DNA from: a virus
Taxonomy: Duplodnaviria > Heunggongvirae > Uroviricota > Caudoviricetes
Direction: 5' to 3' (one strand)
DNA: 25,712 bases
Virus record (IMG/VR): IMGVR_UViG_2706794687_000008
Shown: positions 1,069 through 8,888 of the stretch, piece by piece
Layout of the letters: every line of letters begins with the position of its first letter
Numbering within the stretch: the stretch's first letter is position 1
Notes under the pieces: generated by a model
The model's input: the letters and a program-made list of their open reading frames with translations, nothing else
Told to the model about the DNA's origin: nothing
Database searches by the model: none
Made by a program: the position numbers and the translations under genes

Positions 1069-1358
1069 TGGTGAATTTACGTAAAGCGGCTAAAGGCCAG
1101 ATGTGCCAGATCAGAATCCCTGGCTACTGCAATCACAATCCCGAAACCTCTGTGCTGGCGCATTACAGGCTGGCGGGGACGTGCGGAACAGCGACAAAAC
1201 CACATGATATGCAGGCGGCGATAGCCTGTAGCTCATGCCACGATCTAATCGACGGGCGGGTAAAAACCAGCGATTACACCAAAGAAGAATTGCGCCTGAT
1301 GCATGCTGAAGGGGTTTTTCGCACACAAGAAATCTGGAGAAAGAAAGGTCATTTATGA
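1068..1358 (+). CDS. DUF1364-family protein (YbcO-like, Cys-rich putative nuclease)
   Basis: 96 aa ORF coupled to both neighbours (TAATG at its start, ATGA at its end). Several Cys/His clusters (CQIRIPGYC, CSSCHD). Size and position match YbcO-like proteins of lambdoid nin regions. Confidence 0.6.
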   Translation: MVNLRKAAKGQMCQIRIPGYCNHNPETSVLAHYRLAGTCGTATKPHDMQAAIACSSCHDLIDGRVKTSDYTKEELRLMHAEGVFRTQEIWRKKGHL

Positions 1359-1897
1359 TTTACCCAACGAATACAGGAAAAAGCGGAGAACACCTTCGCC
1401 TCACCACGCTGGAAAGTGTCTGGATTCAGGGAAAACTACGTATGTGGGGGCGCTGGTCGTATATTGGCGGTGGCAGGTCAGGGAATATGTTCAATCAGTT
1501 GTTGGCATCCAAAAAACTGACGAAAACAGCCATTAATGAAGCCCTGCGCAGAATGAAAAAAGCGGGAATAGAGAAAGCTGAGCTGGAAGCGTTTTTGCGA
1601 GAGATGATCAACGGCAAGCAAAAGAGCTGGCTGGCGCATTGTACTGATGCAGAGGCGTTATGTATTGATCGAGTCATAAGTGAGGTGCTGGCAGAGCATC
1701 CAGGATTGATTTGCATTCTCCGGCAACGCTATGAAGGGCGGGGGATGACTAAGCGCAAAATGGCTGAATTGCTAAATGATGCACACCCAGAGTGGTGTTT
1801 TAGCACATGCGAAAAACGGATTGCTAATTGGTTAGCTGTTGCTGAGTATGCCCTATATATTCCCATGCGTGAATCATTTGCTGAGAAAATGGCTTGA
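1355..1897 (+). CDS. putative late-gene antiterminator Q-like protein
   Basis: 180 aa ORF coupled to the upstream gene (ATGA overlap). It is the last gene before a noncoding region with intrinsic terminator hairpins, and a lysis cassette follows, which is the canonical Q position. Family assignment is by context and loose recollection only. Confidence 0.45.
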   Translation: MIYPTNTGKSGEHLRLTTLESVWIQGKLRMWGRWSYIGGGRSGNMFNQLLASKKLTKTAINEALRRMKKAGIEKAELEAFLREMINGKQKSWLAHCTDAEALCIDRVISEVLAEHPGLICILRQRYEGRGMTKRKMAELLNDAHPEWCFSTCEKRIANWLAVAEYALYIPMRESFAEKMA

Positions 1898-1981
1898 TTT
1901 CTTACGTATAAACTGCTTCAATTTTGCTATGCTTCGCAAAGCTGTATCGCGAGGCGGATTGCAGACATGGACATCGTAAAA

Positions 1982-2004
1982 AAACCGCTTAATGCGGTTT
2001 TTTT
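1982..2004 (+). terminator. rho-independent terminator downstream of Q (tR'-like)
   Basis: Hairpin AACCGC-TTAAT-GCGGTT followed by a run of 7 T, preceded by an A-run, about 85 nt after the Q stop. Confidence 0.6.
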
Positions 2005-2350: not shown

Positions 2351-2882
2351 GGGCTGGTTTATTGTATGCCAAATGATTATTAAAAAGGTTGTGTTAATAA
2401 CAAGATCCGAAATAATATGCCTGCATATTTTTATCTTGCTTATATTCTGCATATTGTGCATAGCAGGCTCATCCCTGCAATCAAAACTGTATGATGAGTA
2501 TTTTTTGTTTTCCTTTTTTCCAGTCATCTGATGATGACCTGCTTCTTTTTAATCCGGATCGACATCAGTTTTTTAAGATAATTCCTGCGAGTTATATGCA
2601 TAAATGCCACAAACTCCGCATTTTATGTGGTTGGGAGTTGCCGGGCGCGCAGTGAGTTTGCTAAGAAAACTCCTGCATGGTGAATCCCCCTGTGCGGTGG
2701 GGTGATACCATTAACCTTTTCTGTCGCCGACAGGTATCACGAACATTTTGTTCACCGGGAGGCACCCGGCACCATGCACTTCAATAGATTCTCTCCACAT
2801 TATGGATATTCTTTCAGAATATCCCACGCAGACTTTGTGTAAATGTTAACAAATGTGCGTTTTATTTGATCTGATTCGCTGT

Positions 2883-2912
2883 TTGAGCGTCCAAAACAAC
2901 GGTATATATAAT
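2883..2912 (+). promoter_or_regulatory. candidate sigma70 promoter for the lipoprotein moron
   Basis: TTGAGC (2883-2888), 18 bp spacer, TATAAT (2907-2912), about 30 nt upstream of the ATG at 2942. Found by eye only. Confidence 0.3.
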
Positions 2913-2941: not shown

Positions 2942-3370
2942 ATGGGTTTTCGTAGCGCATCAATTCTTACGTTGATTATTAGTGGGATTATTATCGGGTG
3001 CACTGATGCTGTATCGACAAATTATCATGACCGTACATCATATTACTCCGATAAAGCAATAGAGACACAGTATGTGAGTTCATCTGAACGTACTTCTGAT
3101 GTTAGTGAGGATATCCGTCTGTATGCCCATCAAATCAAGAGCGCCATCGAAAAACAGTTCGGGGATGCGAGTAAGTATTCAGGAAAAGAGTGTACACTGA
3201 GAATGCATATGGCCCCGAATGGCCTTCTACTGGAGGTTAAAAGAGAAAGTGGAGACCTCGATTTATGTCGTGAAGCGATGAATGCGATAAAGAATGCTGA
3301 TATACCTGCCCCCCCTTCGCCGGAAGTATATAAAGTATTTCAAAATGGGGTGCTGGATTTTAAACCCTGA
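2942..3370 (+). CDS. lipoprotein with TolA C-terminal (domain III)-like domain
   Basis: 142 aa. N-terminal signal peptide ending in lipobox IIGC with Thr after the Cys, so an outer-membrane lipoprotein is predicted. RBS GAGGAAAA precedes the ATG. The C-terminal ~85 aa resemble the C-terminus of E. coli TolA as I recall it. Confidence 0.65.
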   Translation: MGFRSASILTLIISGIIIGCTDAVSTNYHDRTSYYSDKAIETQYVSSSERTSDVSEDIRLYAHQIKSAIEKQFGDASKYSGKECTLRMHMAPNGLLLEVKRESGDLDLCREAMNAIKNADIPAPPSPEVYKVFQNGVLDFKP

Positions 3371-3520
3371 TATTTATTGTTTTGTAATAAACGGTTTCGG
3401 CTTAGGTTTGTTCTGACACAGCTACGGCACTGAGCTAAATTTAGCGGATAGTCAGCTCTGAGCCAGTGGCGGACGTAACAACTACTATTGCTGAGATTTT
3501 AATGGATTGAGGAGCAAGAA

Positions 3521-3916
3521 GTGGGATTAAAGAAAATCGTTATGTTGACTTTTTGGGTCGGTTTTGTTGCGGGATGCACACCTTTACACCCTTCAGATTG
3601 CCACAAAACTACTGCTACAGGTAGTTGCAGTTCAGGACGCTGGGATGATCAGGATGAATGGGGGGCGCAAGCGCGGGGAATCAGAGCTGCAATTAATGCC
3701 AAACTTGATGAGCCGCATAACTGGAAAGGGAAAAAATGCAGGTTGCATATGGAATTCTCTCAGGATGGCACGGCGTTAAAAATATCTACCAGTAACGGTG
3801 ATAAAGCCTATTGCGAAGCGATAAAGTCCGCAGCTCATAAAGCCAAATTTCCGGCCTTCAACAATCCGGAAGTCTACAGAGATTTTCAGAAATCTGGCTT
3901 TGACATGCGAGGTTAG
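3521..3916 (+). CDS. second lipoprotein with TolA domain III-like C-terminus (paralog of 2942..3370)
   Basis: 131 aa with GTG start preceded by GGAGCAAG. Signal peptide MGLKKIVMLTFWVGFVAGC with lipobox VAGC and Thr after the Cys. Cys-rich mature N-terminus. The C-terminal half shares the motifs GK.C.L.M, C.EA..A and PEVY..FQ with the upstream paralog. Confidence 0.6.
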   Translation: MGLKKIVMLTFWVGFVAGCTPLHPSDCHKTTATGSCSSGRWDDQDEWGAQARGIRAAINAKLDEPHNWKGKKCRLHMEFSQDGTALKISTSNGDKAYCEAIKSAAHKAKFPAFNNPEVYRDFQKSGFDMRG

Positions 3917-4041: not shown

Positions 4042-4065
4042 AGCTCGCTACGGCGAGCTTTTTAT
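4042..4065 (+). terminator. rho-independent terminator closing the lipoprotein unit
   Basis: AGCTCGC-TACG-GCGAGCT perfect 7 bp stem followed by TTTTAT, about 125 nt after the second lipoprotein stop and about 100 nt before the holin start. Confidence 0.6.
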
Positions 4066-4167
4066 ATTGCATCGTCTCCAGCATATATATCAATTAAGGC
4101 TCTGATTGATGTGTCTGAAAGCCTACACATAATAACTATGCCATCCGTTCCGTGCGGAGGTGAGGCT

Positions 4168-4383
4168 ATGAAATCCATGGACAAAATTTCAACAGGCATT
4201 GCCTACGGCACCTCCGCAGGCAGTGCTGGCTACTGGTTTTTACAGTTGCTCGATAGAGTAACTCCGTCACAGTGGGCTGCAATCGGTGTGCTGGGTAGTC
4301 TGGTATTTGGCCTGCTGACGTACCTGACAAACCTTTATTTCAAGATTAAAGAAGATAAGCGCAAGGCTGCGAGAGGTGAATAA
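4168..4383 (+). CDS. S: class II holin, phage 21 S21 pinholin type (dual-start antiholin/holin)
   Basis: The translation from [24 protein letters not shown] to [11 protein letters not shown] closely matches my recollection of phage 21 S21 (71 aa). Dual-start motif M-K-S-M and two TMDs are present. The six-frame ORF begins at 4111, but the homologous start is the ATG at 4168, preceded by GGAGGTGAGG. Confidence 0.85.
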
Positions 4384-4880
4384 TGCCTCCATCATTACGA
4401 AAAGTCGTTGCTGCTGCTATTGGTGGCGGAGCAATTGCTATAGCATCAGTGTTAATCACTGGCCCAAGTGGTAACGATGGTCTGGAAGGTGTCAGCTACA
4501 TACCATACAAAGATATTGTTGGTGTATGGACTGTATGTCACGGGCATACAGGAAAAGACATCATGCTCGGTAAAACGTATACCAAAGCAGAATGCAAAAC
4601 ACTCTTGAATAAAGACCTTGCCACTGTCGCCAGACAAATTAACCCGTACATCAAAGTCGATATACCGGAAACAACGCGCGGCGCTCTTTACTCGTTCGTT
4701 TACAACGTGGGTGCTGGTAATTTCAGAACATCGACGCTTCTTCGCAAAATAAACCAGGGCGATATCAAAGGCGCATGTGATCAGCTACGTCGCTGGACAT
4801 ATGCTGGCGGTAAGCAATGGAAAGGTCTCATGACTCGTCGTGAGATTGAGCGTGAAGTCTGTTTGTGGGGTCAACAATGA
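4383..4880 (+). CDS. R: SAR endolysin (phage 21 R21-type lysozyme)
   Basis: 165 aa. N-terminal Gly/Ala-rich signal-anchor-release segment ([18 protein letters not shown]) followed by a lysozyme-like domain. Start overlaps the holin stop (TAATG). Close to R21 as I recall it. Confidence 0.9.
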
Positions 4881-5430
4881 GCAGGGTAACCGCGATTATC
4901 TCCGCTCTGGTTATTTGCATCATCGTCTGCCTGTCNNNNNNNNNNNNNNNNNNNNNNNNNNNNNNNNNNNNNNNNNNNNNNNNNNNNNNNNNNNNNNNNN
5001 NNNNNNNNNNNNNNNNNNNNNNNNNNNNNNNNNNNNNNNNNNNNNNNNNNNNNNNNNNNNNNNNNNNNNNNNNNNNNNNNNNNNNNNNNNNNNNNNNNNN
5101 NNNNNNNNNNNNNNNNNNNNNNNNNNNNNNNNNNNNNNNNNNNNNNNNNNNNNNNNNNNNNNNNNNNNNNNNNNNNNNNNNNNNNNNNCGAAAGCTGAAA
5201 ATGATGCTCTGCGTGATGATGTTGCCGCTGGTCGTCGTCGGTTGCACATCAAAGCAGTCTGTCAGTCAGTGCGTGAAGCCACCACCGCCTCCGGCGTGGA
5301 TAATGCAGCCTCCCCCCGACTGGCAGACACCGCTGAACGGGATTATTTCACCCTCCGGGAACGACTGGTAATGATGCAGGCCCAACTTGAAGGTGCTCAG
5401 CAATACATAACCGAGCAGTGTTTAAAGTAA
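4877..5430 (+). CDS. Rz: i-spanin Rz (interrupted by N-run 4936-5188)
   Basis: Starts [19 protein letters not shown] (N-terminal TMD). After the gap it continues [27 protein letters not shown] and ends EQCLK, lambda Rz-like. The reading frame before and after the N-run differs, so the gap length is not faithful. Confidence 0.75.
4936..5188. other. run of 253 N (assembly gap or masked segment)
   Basis: Directly visible in the sequence; it interrupts Rz. Confidence 1.
5201..5371 (+). CDS. Rz1: o-spanin Rz1 lipoprotein embedded in the +1 frame of Rz
   Basis: [19 protein letters not shown] with lipobox VVGC, followed by a proline-rich tract [15 protein letters not shown], lying wholly inside Rz in another frame. 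Confidence 0.7.
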   Translation: MMLCVMMLPLVVVGCTSKQSVSQCVKPPPPPAWIMQPPPDWQTPLNGIISPSGNDW

Positions 5431-5495
5431 AATCTTAACTACAATATGATTCATTTTGATGATTGTTTCATAAGGAACAGTGAAGTAAGATCTAA

Positions 5496-5762
5496 NNNNN
5501 NNNNNNNNNNNNNNNNNNNNNNNNNNNNNNNNNNNNNNNNNNNNNNNNNNNNNNNNNNNNNNNNNNNNNNNNNNNNNNNNNNNNNNNNNNNNNNNNNNNN
5601 NNNNNNNNNNNNNNNNNNNNNNNNNNNNNNNNNNNNNNNNNNNNNNNNNNNNNNNNNNNNNNNNNNNNNNNNNNNNNNNNNNNNNNNNNNNNNNNNNNNN
5701 NNNNNNNNNNNNNNNNNNNNNNNNNNNNNNNNNNNNNNNNNNNNNNNNNNNNNNNNNNNNNN
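5496..5762. other. run of 267 N (assembly gap or masked segment)
   Basis: Directly visible in the sequence; it covers the predicted 5' end of trkG. Confidence 1.
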
Positions 5763-7037
5763 AAATCTGGCATTCAATTACGTACCCGTGATGGGTTTAT
5801 TATAATTGTAATGTTTTGGATTTTGTTTTCTGTTATTAGTGCATTCCCTTTATGGATTGACTCAGAACTTAATTTAACGTTCATTGATGCTCTGTTTGAA
5901 GGGGTTTCTGGAATAACAACAACAGGAGCAACTGTAATTGATGATGTTAGTTCATTACCTCGGGCATATTTGTACTATCGGTCACAGTTAAATTTTATAG
6001 GTGGTTTAGGAGTTATTGTTCTGGCGGTTGCAGTATTGCCATTATTGGGTATTGGTGGTGCAAAGCTTTATCAGTCAGAAATGCCGGGGCCATTTAAGGA
6101 TGACAAACTCACTCCCCGCCTGGCCGATACGTCACGGACACTGTGGATAACTTATTCTTTATTAGGTATTGCTTGTATTGTCTGTTATAGACTTGCAGGA
6201 ATGCCTTTGTTTGATGCTATTTGTCACGGGATTTCCACAGTTTCGCTTGGTGGTTTCTCAACTCATAGCGAGAGTATCGGATATTTTAATAACTATTTGG
6301 TTGAGCTGGTGGCTGGTTCTTTTTCCCTGCTATCGGCTTTCAACTTCACTCTTTGGTATATTGTTATTAGCAGAAAAACGATAAAACCTTTAATCAGAGA
6401 TATTGAACTTCGTTTCTTTCTGTTAATAGCCTTAGGGGTGATCATTGTTACCTCTTTCCAGGTCTGGCATATAGGTATGTATGACTTGCATGGAAGTTTT
6501 ATTCATTCGTTTTTTCTTGCCAGCTCCATGCTCACTGATAATGGTTTAGCTACGCAGGATTATGCAAACTGGCCCACGCACACGATAGTGTTTTTGCTGT
6601 TGTCAAGTTTCTTTGGGGGATGTATAGGTTCAACCTGTGGTGGAATTAAGTCACTTCGATTTCTTATACTTTTCAAACAAAGCAAACACGAGATAAATCA
6701 GCTTTCTCATCCCAGAGCGTTGTTGAGTGTAAATGTAGGAGGGAAGATAGTTACAGATCGTGTAATGAGGTCTGTATGGAGTTTCTTTTTTCTTTATACT
6801 CTCTTCACGGTGTTTTTTATACTGGTGTTAAATGGTATGGGATATGATTTTCTTACATCATTTGCAACAGTGGCTGCATGTATTAATAATATGGGATTAG
6901 GTTTTGGGGCTACTGCATCGTCATTCGGAGTGCTTAATGACATTGCAAAATATTTAATGTGCATAGCTATGATTCTTGGTCGCCTTGAAATTTATCCTGT
7001 TATTATATTGTTTTCAGGTTTTTTTTGGCGCTCCTAA
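5763..7037 (+). CDS. trkG: Trk-system K+ uptake protein TrkG/TrkH family (5' end lies in the N-run)
   Basis: Polytopic membrane protein. The frame is open straight from the gap edge (KSGIQLRTRDGFIIIVMFWILFSV) to the stop at 7037. The translation matches E. coli TrkG, the Rac-prophage K+ transporter, as I recall it, and the missing N-terminus would fall inside the gap. The segment is visibly AT-richer than the flanking phage genes. Confidence 0.85.
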   Translation, partial: KSGIQLRTRDGFIIIVMFWILFSVISAFPLWIDSELNLTFIDALFEGVSGITTTGATVIDDVSSLPRAYLYYRSQLNFIGGLGVIVLAVAVLPLLGIGGAKLYQSEMPGPFKDDKLTPRLADTSRTLWITYSLLGIACIVCYRLAGMPLFDAICHGISTVSLGGFSTHSESIGYFNNYLVELVAGSFSLLSAFNFTLWYIVISRKTIKPLIRDIELRFFLLIALGVIIVTSFQVWHIGMYDLHGSFIHSFFLASSMLTDNGLATQDYANWPTHTIVFLLLSSFFGGCIGSTCGGIKSLRFLILFKQSKHEINQLSHPRALLSVNVGGKIVTDRVMRSVWSFFFLYTLFTVFFILVLNGMGYDFLTSFATVAACINNMGLGFGATASSFGVLNDIAKYLMCIAMILGRLEIYPVIILFSGFFWRS

Positions 7038-7174: not shown

Positions 7175-7963
7175 ATGAGCGAGAAATTAAAGATAGTCTA
7201 TCGCCCATTACAAGAATTGTCACCGTATGCGCACAACGCCAGGACGCACAGTACTGAGCAGGTGGCACAACTGGTAGAAAGTATTAAGCAATTCGGCTGG
7301 ACTAATCCGGTGCTGATTGACGAAAAGGGCGAAATTATTGCGGGTCACGGTCGTGTTATGGCGGCTGAAATGCTCAAAATGGATTCTGTTCCGGTCATTG
7401 TTCTGTCTGGCCTGACGGATGAGCAGAAAAAGGCGTACCGCCTGGCAGATAATCGCCTGCCGATGAATGCTGGCTGGGATGAAGATCTGTTGCGGATGGA
7501 GCTGTCGGACCTAATCAATGCTGATTTTGATGTCTCCCTGACAGGCTTCATCCCGGCAGAAATTGATGAACTGTTGACGGATGTTTTGCCCGGTACAGGA
7601 AATGAGGAGGAGCCGTATACGACGAAAATTGATACGCCTGTTTATGAGCCGTCAGGCGGTAAACCGGATATCAGTGAACTGTACGACGATACGAAAACTC
7701 AGGAGCTGATCAGCCGGATACGTTCGGCGTCCCTTGATCCTGATATTGAGAAATTCCTCCTGTGTGCAGCAGAACGTCACACGGTGTTTAATTTCAGCAG
7801 AATTGCGGACTATTACGCTCATGCCCCCGCTGAAATTCAGTGCCTTTTCGAGGAGTCGGCGCTGGTGATCATTGATTATCAGCAGGCTATTGAAAATGGA
7901 TTTGTCCGAATGACGCAGCGCATGGTGGAGATCATGCATGGCGGGGAGGAGGAATATGCGTGA
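7175..7963 (+). CDS. ParB N-terminal domain-like protein (ParB/Srx-fold putative nuclease or DNA-binding protein)
   Basis: 262 aa. The N-terminus (KIVYRPLQELSPYAHNARTH, AQLVESIKQFGWTNPVLIDEKGEIIAGHGRVMAA) carries the hallmark ParB-box arrangement. Its stop overlaps the next start (ATGCGTGA). Confidence 0.7.
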   Translation: MSEKLKIVYRPLQELSPYAHNARTHSTEQVAQLVESIKQFGWTNPVLIDEKGEIIAGHGRVMAAEMLKMDSVPVIVLSGLTDEQKKAYRLADNRLPMNAGWDEDLLRMELSDLINADFDVSLTGFIPAEIDELLTDVLPGTGNEEEPYTTKIDTPVYEPSGGKPDISELYDDTKTQELISRIRSASLDPDIEKFLLCAAERHTVFNFSRIADYYAHAPAEIQCLFEESALVIIDYQQAIENGFVRMTQRMVEIMHGGEEEYA

Positions 7964-8888
7964 TGATTTTTGCGCCTTTATTCTGACTCACGGGCGACCG
8001 GACAAAGTTCTGACTTACCGGACGTTGCGTCGTGCTGGCTATACCGGGAAAATTTTTATCGTTGTTGATGATGAAGATAAGACACGGCATCAGTACATGG
8101 CTGAATTTGGTGAACAGGTGCTGGTATTTTCCAAAGCCGATATTGCTAGTCGTTTTGACGAAGCCGATAATTTTAGTGACCGCCGCTCAATTTTTTACGC
8201 CCGTAATGCCTGTTTCGACCAGGCAAAACTGGTCGGGTGTAAATACTTCATTCAGCTCGATGATGATTATCACGAGTTCCAGTTTCGGGTGGATCGCAAC
8301 TATGACCAGGCCTATTTCCCGATAAGGAAACTGGATGAGATCCTTTCTGAAATGCTTGCGTACTACGAATCAATACCTGCTCTTTCCATCGCTATGTCGC
8401 AGGGCGGGGATTTTCTTGGTGACAATGGCGGCCATGCTTCGTGGGTGAAACGCAAGGCAATGAACAGCTTTATCTGTTCGGTTGATCGACCGTTCTCATT
8501 CATGGGGCGCATTAACGAGGATGTGAATACGTACACGAATCTCGGTCGCTGTGGTGAATTGTTTATGACGATCGGTGCTGTCCAGTTAGGGCAGAAACAG
8601 ACGCAGAAAAACAGCGGCGGAATGACCGAGCTGTATCTGGATTCCGGAACCTACGTTAAAAGTTTTTACTCCGTCATGTATGCGCCGTCGTGCGTAAAAA
8701 TCTCACTTATGGGTGCCAGTCATAAACGCATTCACCATCAGGTCACCTGGAACAACGCTGCAGTAAAAATCCTTCACGAAAAATACAGGAAGAAGACACC
8801 CTGCATATCAATGGGGGTGACAAATGATTCCGTATTCGAAAGTCGAGTCTCTGGCAGCGTGCCGGATGACTGCACAACAAATCGCTGA
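7956..8888 (+). CDS. hypothetical protein, possibly GT-A-fold nucleotide-sugar transferase-like (two DxD-type motifs)
   Basis: The six-frame ORF runs 7938..8888; the ATG at 7956 (MRDDFCAFILTHGRPDK) overlaps the ParB-like stop. FILTHGRP and IFIVVDDED resemble the N-terminal strand and first acidic motif of GT2-type enzymes, and YFIQLDDDYHEF is a second DxD-like motif. The fold assignment is a weak inference. Confidence 0.35.
   Translation: MRDDFCAFILTHGRPDKVLTYRTLRRAGYTGKIFIVVDDEDKTRHQYMAEFGEQVLVFSKADIASRFDEADNFSDRRSIFYARNACFDQAKLVGCKYFIQLDDDYHEFQFRVDRNYDQAYFPIRKLDEILSEMLAYYESIPALSIAMSQGGDFLGDNGGHASWVKRKAMNSFICSVDRPFSFMGRINEDVNTYTNLGRCGELFMTIGAVQLGQKQTQKNSGGMTELYLDSGTYVKSFYSVMYAPSCVKISLMGASHKRIHHQVTWNNAAVKILHEKYRKKTPCISMGVTNDSVFESRVSGSVPDDCTTNR

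Follow-up and report, generated by a model that had tools for sequence, protein, structure and literature searches.

The window analysed here is the whole stretch of 25,712 nucleotides in the IMG/VR virus record IMGVR_UViG_2706794687_000008 (Caudoviricetes). Two adjacent genes in it, here called gene A and gene B, each encode a small lipoprotein whose C-terminal part resembles domain III of TolA (TolAIII). The original prediction placed two open reading frames (ORFs) at 2942-3370 and 3521-3916, and both are present on the + strand at exactly these coordinates. Gene A starts with ATG and encodes a TolAIII lipoprotein of 142 amino acids; gene B starts with GTG and encodes one of 131 amino acids. 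A Shine-Dalgarno motif (GAGG) lies 4 nt before the ATG of gene A at 2942. For gene B, the motif read from the sequence is GAGGAG (3509-3514, + strand), 6 nt before the GTG at 3521. In RefSeq, the Prokaryotic Genome Annotation Pipeline (PGAP) starts gene B at the ATG at 3542 and loses the charged n-region GLKK. We preferred the GTG at 3521 because the internal ATG of the plasmid B-type copies is preceded by the Shine-Dalgarno motif of gene B.

Both proteins carry a lipoprotein signal with a Thr at position +2, as had been predicted from the lipoboxes IIGC and VAGC. The N-terminus of protein A is MGFRSASILTLIISGIIIGC, followed by TD. Its signal peptide and lipobox (residues 1-20; 2942-3001, + strand) are made up of the n-region MGFR, the core SASILTLIISGII and IGC20 ahead of TD, so that the lipobox IIGC ends in Cys20. 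The N-terminus of protein B is (GTG)GLKKIVMLTFWVGFVAGC followed by TP; here the signal peptide and lipobox (residues 1-19; 3521-3577, + strand) comprise the n-region GLKK, the core IVMLTFWVGFV and AGC19, with the lipobox VAGC ending in Cys19. Both signal peptides thus combine a positively charged n-region with a hydrophobic core and with a lipobox of the form [LVI][ASTVI][GAS]C. The lipobox was also present in 120 of the 120 listed B-type homologues and in every full-length, in-frame A-type allele. The +2 residue, Thr in A and B, is Ala or Ser in the plasmid and Enterobacter copies and is never Asp. According to the +2 rule of E. coli, lipoproteins without Asp at this position are sorted by Lol to the outer membrane. 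The +2 Thr therefore predicts that A and B are outer-membrane lipoproteins. In protein A the signal is followed by a linker of low structural confidence (residues 21-51) and by TolA domain III (residues 52-142; 3095-3367, + strand). In protein B it is followed by a conserved Cys-containing linker, PLHPSxCHKTTAxGSCSSGRWDDQDEW (residues 20-45), and by the same domain (residues 46-131; 3656-3913, + strand).

The likeness to TolA domain III, noted in the original prediction, proved real and strong by sequence, profile and fold. A profile and structure search against this domain had been proposed as the way to check it; carried out with Pfam, phmmer, AlphaFold2 (AF2) and Foldseek, it gave significant matches for both proteins. 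Protein A matched Pfam PF06519 at 2.4e-23 (82.6 bits, residues 49-140, profile positions 4-96 of 96) and protein B at 1.3e-14 (54.6 bits, residues 44-125), both above the curated gathering score of 25 bits. The phmmer values against the TolAIII chains of the PDB (1S62, 3QDP, 2X9A, 1TOL and the new full-length TolQRA entries) were 5e-28 for A and 5e-9 for B. These alignments reach the last residue of TolA, and protein A ends in the identical LDFKP. The AF2 models had a predicted local distance difference test score above 90 for residues 51-142 of A and 41-131 of B. In either protein, the confidence for the signal peptide and for the linker was below 50. Both models run H-H-E-E-H-H-E (H, helix; E, strand) and contain the elements of the TolAIII fold, namely alpha1, a short helix, beta1, beta2, alpha2, alpha3 and beta3. 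The best Foldseek match of protein A in the PDB was 2x9a_B (template modelling score 0.96, root-mean-square deviation 0.6 Å, 59% identity), and that of protein B was 3qdp (0.92, 1.1 Å, 31% identity). Finally, the cysteine pairs Cys84/Cys109 of A and Cys73/Cys98 of B align with C363-C388 of TolA and are invariant in the alignments. Judged by sequence and predicted model, A and B are members of the TolA_C domain family, with every domain feature that was tested in place.

A and B share 27.7% identity over 141 aa (E 6e-13). The motifs proposed as common to the two held in part. PEVY..FQ and GK.C.L.M occur in both proteins; the gap from that M to the following G is five residues rather than three, and C.EA occurs in A only.

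Neither protein is TolA proper. The architecture of full-length TolA, with the N-terminal transmembrane domain I, which contacts TolQ and TolR, and the long helical domain II, is absent from both, and the genes are not part of a tol operon (ybgC-tolQRA-tolB-pal-cpoB), being located between a phage Q-like gene and a holin gene. In K-12, the true tolA is found within that operon. The NCBIfam model NF007065 was matched at positions 293-386 of 387, with 107.8 bits for A and 53.7 bits for B against a cut-off of 213. Protein A scored 75.6 bits on TIGR02794 (tolA_full; cut-off 59.45), over the C-terminal 98 model positions only. Since A and B are without domains I and II, neither can be energised by TolQR. 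What they have in common with TolA is the fold of domain III, three helices and a three-stranded sheet, with the cysteine pair of the same disulfide; unlike TolA, they have a predicted N-terminal lipid anchor to the outer membrane and cannot transmit the proton-motive force. The fold is also distantly related to the C-terminal domain of TonB. Protein A matched TonB_2 (PF13103) at 5.6e-5, and TonB C-terminal structures were only weak Foldseek matches (template modelling scores of 0.4-0.5). Filing A and B under the TonB C-terminal proteins was rejected, as the TolA match is far stronger and the signature for binding a TonB box is missing.

We then compared the surfaces at which TolAIII is docked by its ligands. 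The N1 domain of the filamentous-phage protein g3p, colicin N and the N-terminus of TolB dock on helix alpha1 and strand beta3 (L417, D418, F419, K420) (PMC4339652; PMC7391070). Docking at beta3 is by beta-strand addition, in which the backbone matters more than the side chains (PMC4339652; PMC7391070). Colicin A docks on the opposite edge, at 375-LLDIKP-380 together with K368, K379 and K396 (PMC3365938). The alpha1 sequence of E. coli TolA, QIKSAIE, is QIKSAIE in A and GIRAAIN in B, and the beta3 sequence LDFKP is LDFKP in A and FDMRG in B. At the colicin A strand, LLDIKP of TolA corresponds to LLEVKR in A and ALKIST in B, and the lysines K368/K379/K396 correspond to H/K/K in A and E/S/H in B. 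Hence protein A has alpha1 and beta3 identical to those of TolA and partly retains the colicin A site at 375-380 and K396. In sequence terms, A is a close mimic of the host TolA (59% identity, with beta3 and alpha1 unchanged), and B has diverged further, is highly conserved and moves among chromosomes, I-complex plasmids, pO157 and this prophage. The reported dissociation constants (Kd) are about 1 µM for ColN-TolAIII and ColA-TolAIII (PMC4339652; PMC3365938) and about 40 µM for TolB-TolAIII (PMC4339652). Given this difference, a modest dose of a decoy could catch colicins without titrating TolB. The g3p of the filamentous phage If1 is likewise a TolAIII ligand, as seen in PDB entry 2x9a.

Both genes are under purifying selection. 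The ratio of nonsynonymous to synonymous substitution rates (dN/dS) among B-type copies (window, pO157, IncK, Enterobacter, Citrobacter and "Serratia") was 0.06-0.13 at dS values of 0.5-1.1. Among A-type alleles it was 0.12-0.35 in the domain and 0.4-0.7 in the signal peptide and linker. Conservation in the B family was 0.95 for the C-terminal 24 residues (loop, alpha3 and beta3), 0.91 for the Cys linker and 0.56 for the signal peptide. The purifying selection and this pattern of conservation rule out pseudogenes and suggest that the beta3 face is the functional one. DNA similarity was absent by blastn at word size 7 when A or B was compared with K-12 tolA, and when A was compared with B; dS against tolA was saturated. 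The lack of DNA similarity to tolA and the saturated dS indicate that A and B are old lineages rather than recent fragments of the host gene. Recent capture of the 3' end of host tolA was rejected on the same two observations.

These results differ from the current annotation. RefSeq/PGAP labels gene A as a "tolA" pseudogene with a "missing N-terminus" and covers its last 261 bp only, and the plasmid B copies are annotated with an N-terminus over-extended by 12 codons. We consider both the pseudogene call for A and the ATG start for B to be wrong; for gene A, the pseudogene assignment was rejected on selection and on conservation of the signal peptide. The errors are systematic, affecting A, B and the plasmid copies of B, and they hide the lipoprotein nature of the proteins. 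The similarity to TolA is itself already in the public annotation, where names such as 'cell envelope integrity TolA C-terminal domain-containing protein' occur, all of them automatic, and the new question is that of function. In PHROG, A and B match phrog_5772, labelled function unknown. The original prediction knew of no characterised system of this kind, and a full-text literature search likewise found no paper characterising A or B and no phenotype data. A prophage 'TolA' linked to ciprofloxacin induction (PMC11125564) was set aside as irrelevant, the gene concerned being a tail-fibre gene.

Gene A contains a C7 homopolymer at 3309-3315, just before the part coding for alpha3-beta3. Frameshift variants of gene A with C6, C8 or C9 and an altered C-terminus (RRKYIKYFKMGCW...) are present in public protein sets. 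Phase variation at this tract was not supported, as C7 was found in 82 of the 82 loci examined and other A alleles are without the tract. The variants are more likely to be due to sequencing error or sporadic mutation than to phase variation.

The A+B pair at 99% identity or more was found in 771 of 5426 complete E. coli genomes (14%), and the exact protein A was found on at least 1000 contigs. On IMG/VR contigs with the A allele of the window, B followed downstream in 77 of 80, at a spacing of 154 nt in 76; the other three contigs end right after A. On one contig, A and B are separated by 1353 nt rather than 154 nt, pointing to a gain of about 1.2 kb in the spacer, perhaps an insertion sequence element. 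The original prediction had regarded the tandem pair as one system, and the distribution does not agree with this. A-type alleles of 91% and 66% identity occur alone, without B, in other lambdoid prophages, where they lie between a Q gene (of differing families) and a P21-type holin gene or a late-region remnant. Conversely, B occurs without A on plasmids and chromosomes. A fixed two-gene system was therefore rejected, and A and B are two independent, stackable single-gene modules. The A type is essentially limited to E. coli and Shigella. A prophage gene for an AraC-family regulator (PF12833) and a TfpB-like gene precede the 66% allele by about 460 bp; the upstream region of this allele is unrelated to that of the window, and its regulation may differ.

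The B type belongs mainly to the chromosomes and plasmids of Enterobacterales rather than to phages. At 90% identity its proteins group into 368 clusters, with lengths of 124-161 aa throughout, and at 87% DNA identity the gene is found on about 600 plasmid records in PLSDB. In pO157 the gene lies between the hok/psiAB leading region and toxB. On the IncK2/Z (MPF_I) conjugative plasmids its place is fixed: it follows the relaxase gene nikB by 68 bp, precedes trbC and is probably co-transcribed with nikAB. Metagenome-assembled contigs labelled Lachnospiraceae and Treponemataceae contained nikA, a relaxase gene and a B-type gene at 89% identity; these are almost certainly mis-binned fragments of enterobacterial IncK-like plasmids. 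In a species-dereplicated genome scan, the B type was found in 34 species representatives, and it is a lone chromosomal gene in about 30 Enterobacterales species. The genera include Enterobacter, Klebsiella, Citrobacter, Leclercia, Lelliottia, Pantoea and Raoultella, and also Rouxiella, Kluyvera, Yokenella, Pluralibacter, Buttiauxella and Serratia. Of the 34 representatives, Shigella is the only one with its copy in a lambdoid late region. At least 17 groups of flanks were distinguished, in which genes for LysR regulators, transporters and redox enzymes predominate. In an assembly labelled 'Serratia marcescens', the gene adjoins GmrSD (PF03235) and HEPN genes, the clearest defence-island-like neighbourhood seen.

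The domain is not limited to these two types: with A as the query, an exhaustive HMMER search returned 333 matches. Among the best 150 representatives of this search (clusters at 50% identity), 71 are 100-190 aa long; 45 of these 71 have a lipobox, and plain signal peptides occur in others. Short TolAIII-only proteins make up dozens of clusters below 50% identity and are therefore a broad class.

The genes around the pair bear out its predicted placement between Q and the lysis genes, with Pfam matches on both sides. A Q-like late antiterminator gene lies at 1355-1897 (+ strand; PF06576 DUF1133, 2.5e-107; PF06530 Phage_antitermQ, 8.6e-6), a P21-type holin gene at 4111-4383 (+ strand; PF04971, 4.5e-35; named essD by PGAP) and a lysozyme gene at 4383-4880 (+ strand; PF00959, 1.8e-45; named rrrD by PGAP). 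The N-terminus of this endolysin resembles a signal-anchor-release (SAR) domain, which together with the P21-type holin suggests a lysis system of pinholin and SAR endolysin. Upstream of the pair are a DUF1367 gene, a YbcO nuclease gene and the DUF1133/Q-like antiterminator gene. Downstream, the order is P21-type holin, lysozyme, Rz (partly masked by N), trkG, a ParB-like gene, a TAGT glycosyltransferase gene and terminase. This gene order matches a Rac-like lambdoid prophage, and it supports the view that A and B occupy the usual moron slot between Q and the lysis genes. Two runs of N (about 4935-5160 and about 5495-5770) break the Rz/Rz1 region and the 5' part of trkG, where the ORFs are strings of X. 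At 7175-8885 (+ strand), between trkG and the small terminase gene, an ORF with a ParB_N domain is followed by one matching PF20691 (TET-associated glycosyltransferase, 4e-34), and the two may be a DNA-modification module of the phage.

A candidate promoter and a terminator of its own had been proposed for the pair. Consensus matches for both are present, and they stand at the level of sequence patterns. A sigma-70 promoter-like site for gene A lies at 2883-2912 (+ strand; TTGAGC-18-TATAAT, 10 of 12 matches in a consensus scan), and a weak promoter-like site (pattern only) lies in the A-B spacer at 3413-3441 (+ strand; CTGACA-17-TAAATT, 9 of 12 matches). In the 91% A allele, the -10 hexamer at the gene A site reads TATGTA/TGTAAT. 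After gene B, the consensus scan identified an intrinsic-terminator-like hairpin at 4042-4059 with a T run to 4067 (+ strand; AGCTCGC-TACG-GCGAGCT then TTTTTAT). In strain ECCHD184, ordinary chromosomal genes lie directly left of hokD and the early region left of Q is missing, so that the pair may depend on its own promoter there. Upstream of both genes, the same kind of scan gave a terminator-like hairpin of 8 pairs with a T run behind it (2325-2344, + strand). Judging by lambdoid gene order it may represent tR' of the late operon, and promoter-like sites at 2140-2177 could make up a pR'/tR' unit with it. Directly 3' of the Q-like gene, at 1931-2004 (+ strand), the sequence matches isrK, an RNA of Gifsy-type prophages that binds Hfq, but below the threshold (21.6 bits; gathering score 50). 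The prophage small RNA STnc100 was identified 110 nt before gene A, at 2645-2831 (+ strand; full-length match to Rfam RF02076, E 1.5e-17, 86.6 bits with a gathering score of 47). It is also conserved in front of the 91% allele; in front of the 66% allele it is missing. STnc100 has been connected with the PasD small RNAs of Stx phages in a 2026 preprint.

What might such proteins do? Group A colicins and filamentous phages, CTXphi in Vibrio among them, share TolA domain III as their point of entry. As the best explanation, held tentatively and at somewhat less than an even chance, we propose that A and B are tethered decoys of this domain that give tolerance to group A colicins or filamentous phages. 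In each protein, a Sec/Lgt/LspA lipoprotein signal and a linker of 25-30 residues precede what is predicted to be a complete TolAIII fold. Anchored by lipid on the inner face of the outer membrane, A and B would stand ahead of the tip of the native TolA. They would catch ligands that add a beta-strand to TolAIII, among them g3p-N1 of filamentous phages and the translocation domains of group A colicins such as N and A. An unenergised copy of TolAIII would hold the ligand unproductively, import would stall and the carrier cell would become tolerant. The analysis establishes the domain, its fold, the lipobox, the purifying selection and the distribution; the outer-membrane location, the binding partners and the protective phenotype are what we infer.

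Several observations are consistent with the decoy explanation. The sequence of A makes it plausible in part, as the surface for g3p-N1, colicin N and TolB is intact there; B has diverged at that surface. The genes travel as single-gene cargo on elements that benefit when their host is protected, in the moron slot of prophages and beside nikB on the IncK2/Z plasmids. Filamentous phage If1 adsorbs to the I-type pili made by I-complex plasmids. The plasmid location therefore fits a decoy, because these plasmids make the pili of If1 and the g3p of If1 binds TolAIII. There are also artificial precedents. Soluble TolAIII exported to the periplasm reportedly gave colicin tolerance (Levengood-Freyermuth et al. 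1993), and periplasmic g3p-N1 is said to block TolA with the same outcome (Boeke et al. 1982). In general, periplasmic TolAIII and g3p-N1 constructs confer colicin tolerance and phage resistance; they are artificial and overexpressed, and they cause leakiness. A and B resemble them in being an unenergised TolAIII that competes with the contacts of the native TolA, as the constructs do with TolAIII or its ligand. In contrast to the constructs, they are natural, predicted to be lipid-tethered, under purifying selection and carried on mobile elements.

A and B can also be compared with Cor (phi80/N15), Llp (T5), Bor (lambda) and TraT (F), which are likewise small lipoproteins carried as single-gene cargo of prophages or plasmids. 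These are thought to block the entry of phages or colicins, or serum killing, at the outer membrane. The known protective lipoproteins mask outer-membrane receptors such as FhuA, whereas A and B would imitate a periplasmic import hub. Homology of A and B to Cor, Llp, Bor or TraT was not found, with Pfam and PHROG giving only TolA, TonB_2 and phrog_5772.

Other observations weigh against the decoy explanation. First, B is just 31-34% identical to E. coli TolAIII and has charge reversals at the colicin A site (K368E, D377K, K379S). Across genera whose own TolA proteins should differ, B retains about 85% identity, which looks like conservation for one conserved partner rather than mimicry of the host, and purifying selection of this strength is unusual for a protein in an arms race. 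In addition, the genes are found in 1 of 50,697 records of sequenced phages (mEp460_ev081), and the TolAIII fold was not found among the viral structures in BFVD (E <= 0.001), so TolAIII lipoproteins are not a general strategy of phages. The prophage itself is unrelated to pili. Finally, the neighbourhoods of B consist mostly of ordinary accessory and metabolic genes, and PADLOC returned no match or model for A or B. An assignment to a known defence family was accordingly dropped. An association of B with defence islands was weak: of about 30 loci, about 3 have strong defence ATPase genes as neighbours, and one has a GmrSD and HEPN pair.

The decoy explanation could be extended to the whole class. 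Short TolAIII-only proteins, whether lipid-anchored or secreted, might be a widespread receptor-mimic immunity against Tol-dependent bacteriocins and TolA-dependent filamentous phages, carried by prophages, I-complex plasmids, pO157 and variable chromosomal sites in Enterobacterales and beyond, and acting on plasmids against the phages of their own pili. We regard this generalisation as possible but doubtful. More speculative is the idea that the B linker SSGRWDDQDEW and the TolAIII domain form a two-site trap for TolB. As a TolB box (DG(S/T)GWSSE), this linker was too loose a match and was not counted as evidence.

The main rival to the decoy explanation is that A and B modulate the Tol-Pal system, which we consider unlikely. 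At the outer membrane, a tethered TolAIII would bind the N-terminus of TolB, the physiological partner of TolA, and compete with energised TolA, so that less Pal is mobilised and the outer membrane is loosened. The outcome would be vesicles, leakiness or easier lysis, the last alongside holin, endolysin and spanin on late read-through of the prophage. The position of the genes within the Q-dependent late transcription unit, directly before the holin gene, agrees with this, and TolB uses the beta3 site that is kept exactly in A. The conservation of B across genera also fits a conserved partner such as TolB, and a review of Tol-Pal states that altering the TolB-TolA or TolB-Pal contacts could regulate vesicles (PMC7391070). 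However, the weak affinity of TolB for TolAIII (about 40 µM) means that high expression would be needed. Stable B singletons occur on chromosomes and conjugative plasmids, where a tol-like envelope defect would be costly. A role in lysis leaves these copies unexplained, and the gene is almost absent from sequenced phages, lytic or temperate.

Alternatively, the proteins, and chiefly B, could serve the physiology of the envelope with a conserved periplasmic or outer-membrane partner of their own, the mobile elements carrying them as ordinary cargo. We regard this as improbable. It would account for the lone chromosomal B genes of about 30 Enterobacterales species, mostly beside LysR, transporter and redox genes, and for the low dN/dS of B (0.06-0.13) with a linker conserved nearly as well as the domain (0.91). 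The dozens of clusters of short TolAIII-only lipoproteins below 50% identity are also in its favour. Against it, the 17 or more flank groups and the identity of about 85% across genera indicate that the gene has spread horizontally and does not serve a core function. That a prophage, pO157 and the IncK2/Z plasmids have each captured it suggests a benefit in conflict or colonisation, and there is no candidate partner. The reading of the genes as decayed remnants of a captured tolA without function, for which the PGAP label and the TIGR02794 score of A over its last 98 model positions could be cited, is effectively refuted and extremely improbable: the ORFs and Shine-Dalgarno motifs are intact, a new lipoprotein signal peptide is conserved in alleles just 66% identical, the A domain is under purifying selection, DNA similarity to E. 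coli tolA is absent with dS saturated, and the exact A protein recurs on at least 1000 contigs.

The domain annotation is public and the phenotype would be expected from the laboratory constructs, so that we do not regard the finding as categorically new. Nevertheless, a decoy of a periplasmic import hub that is natural and mobile would be a new form of envelope-level exclusion. If the decoy explanation is true, the tethered TolAIII would be the first known defence that imitates the import hub in the periplasm instead of masking a surface receptor. It could then account for part of the differences in sensitivity to colicins and phages between E. coli strains, given that the pair is present in 14% of complete genomes and B on about 600 PLSDB plasmids including pO157, and it could explain why I-complex plasmids keep B beside the relaxase gene. 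If A and B instead tune Tol-Pal, they would be natural tools for the study of TolB-TolA coupling and vesicle formation.

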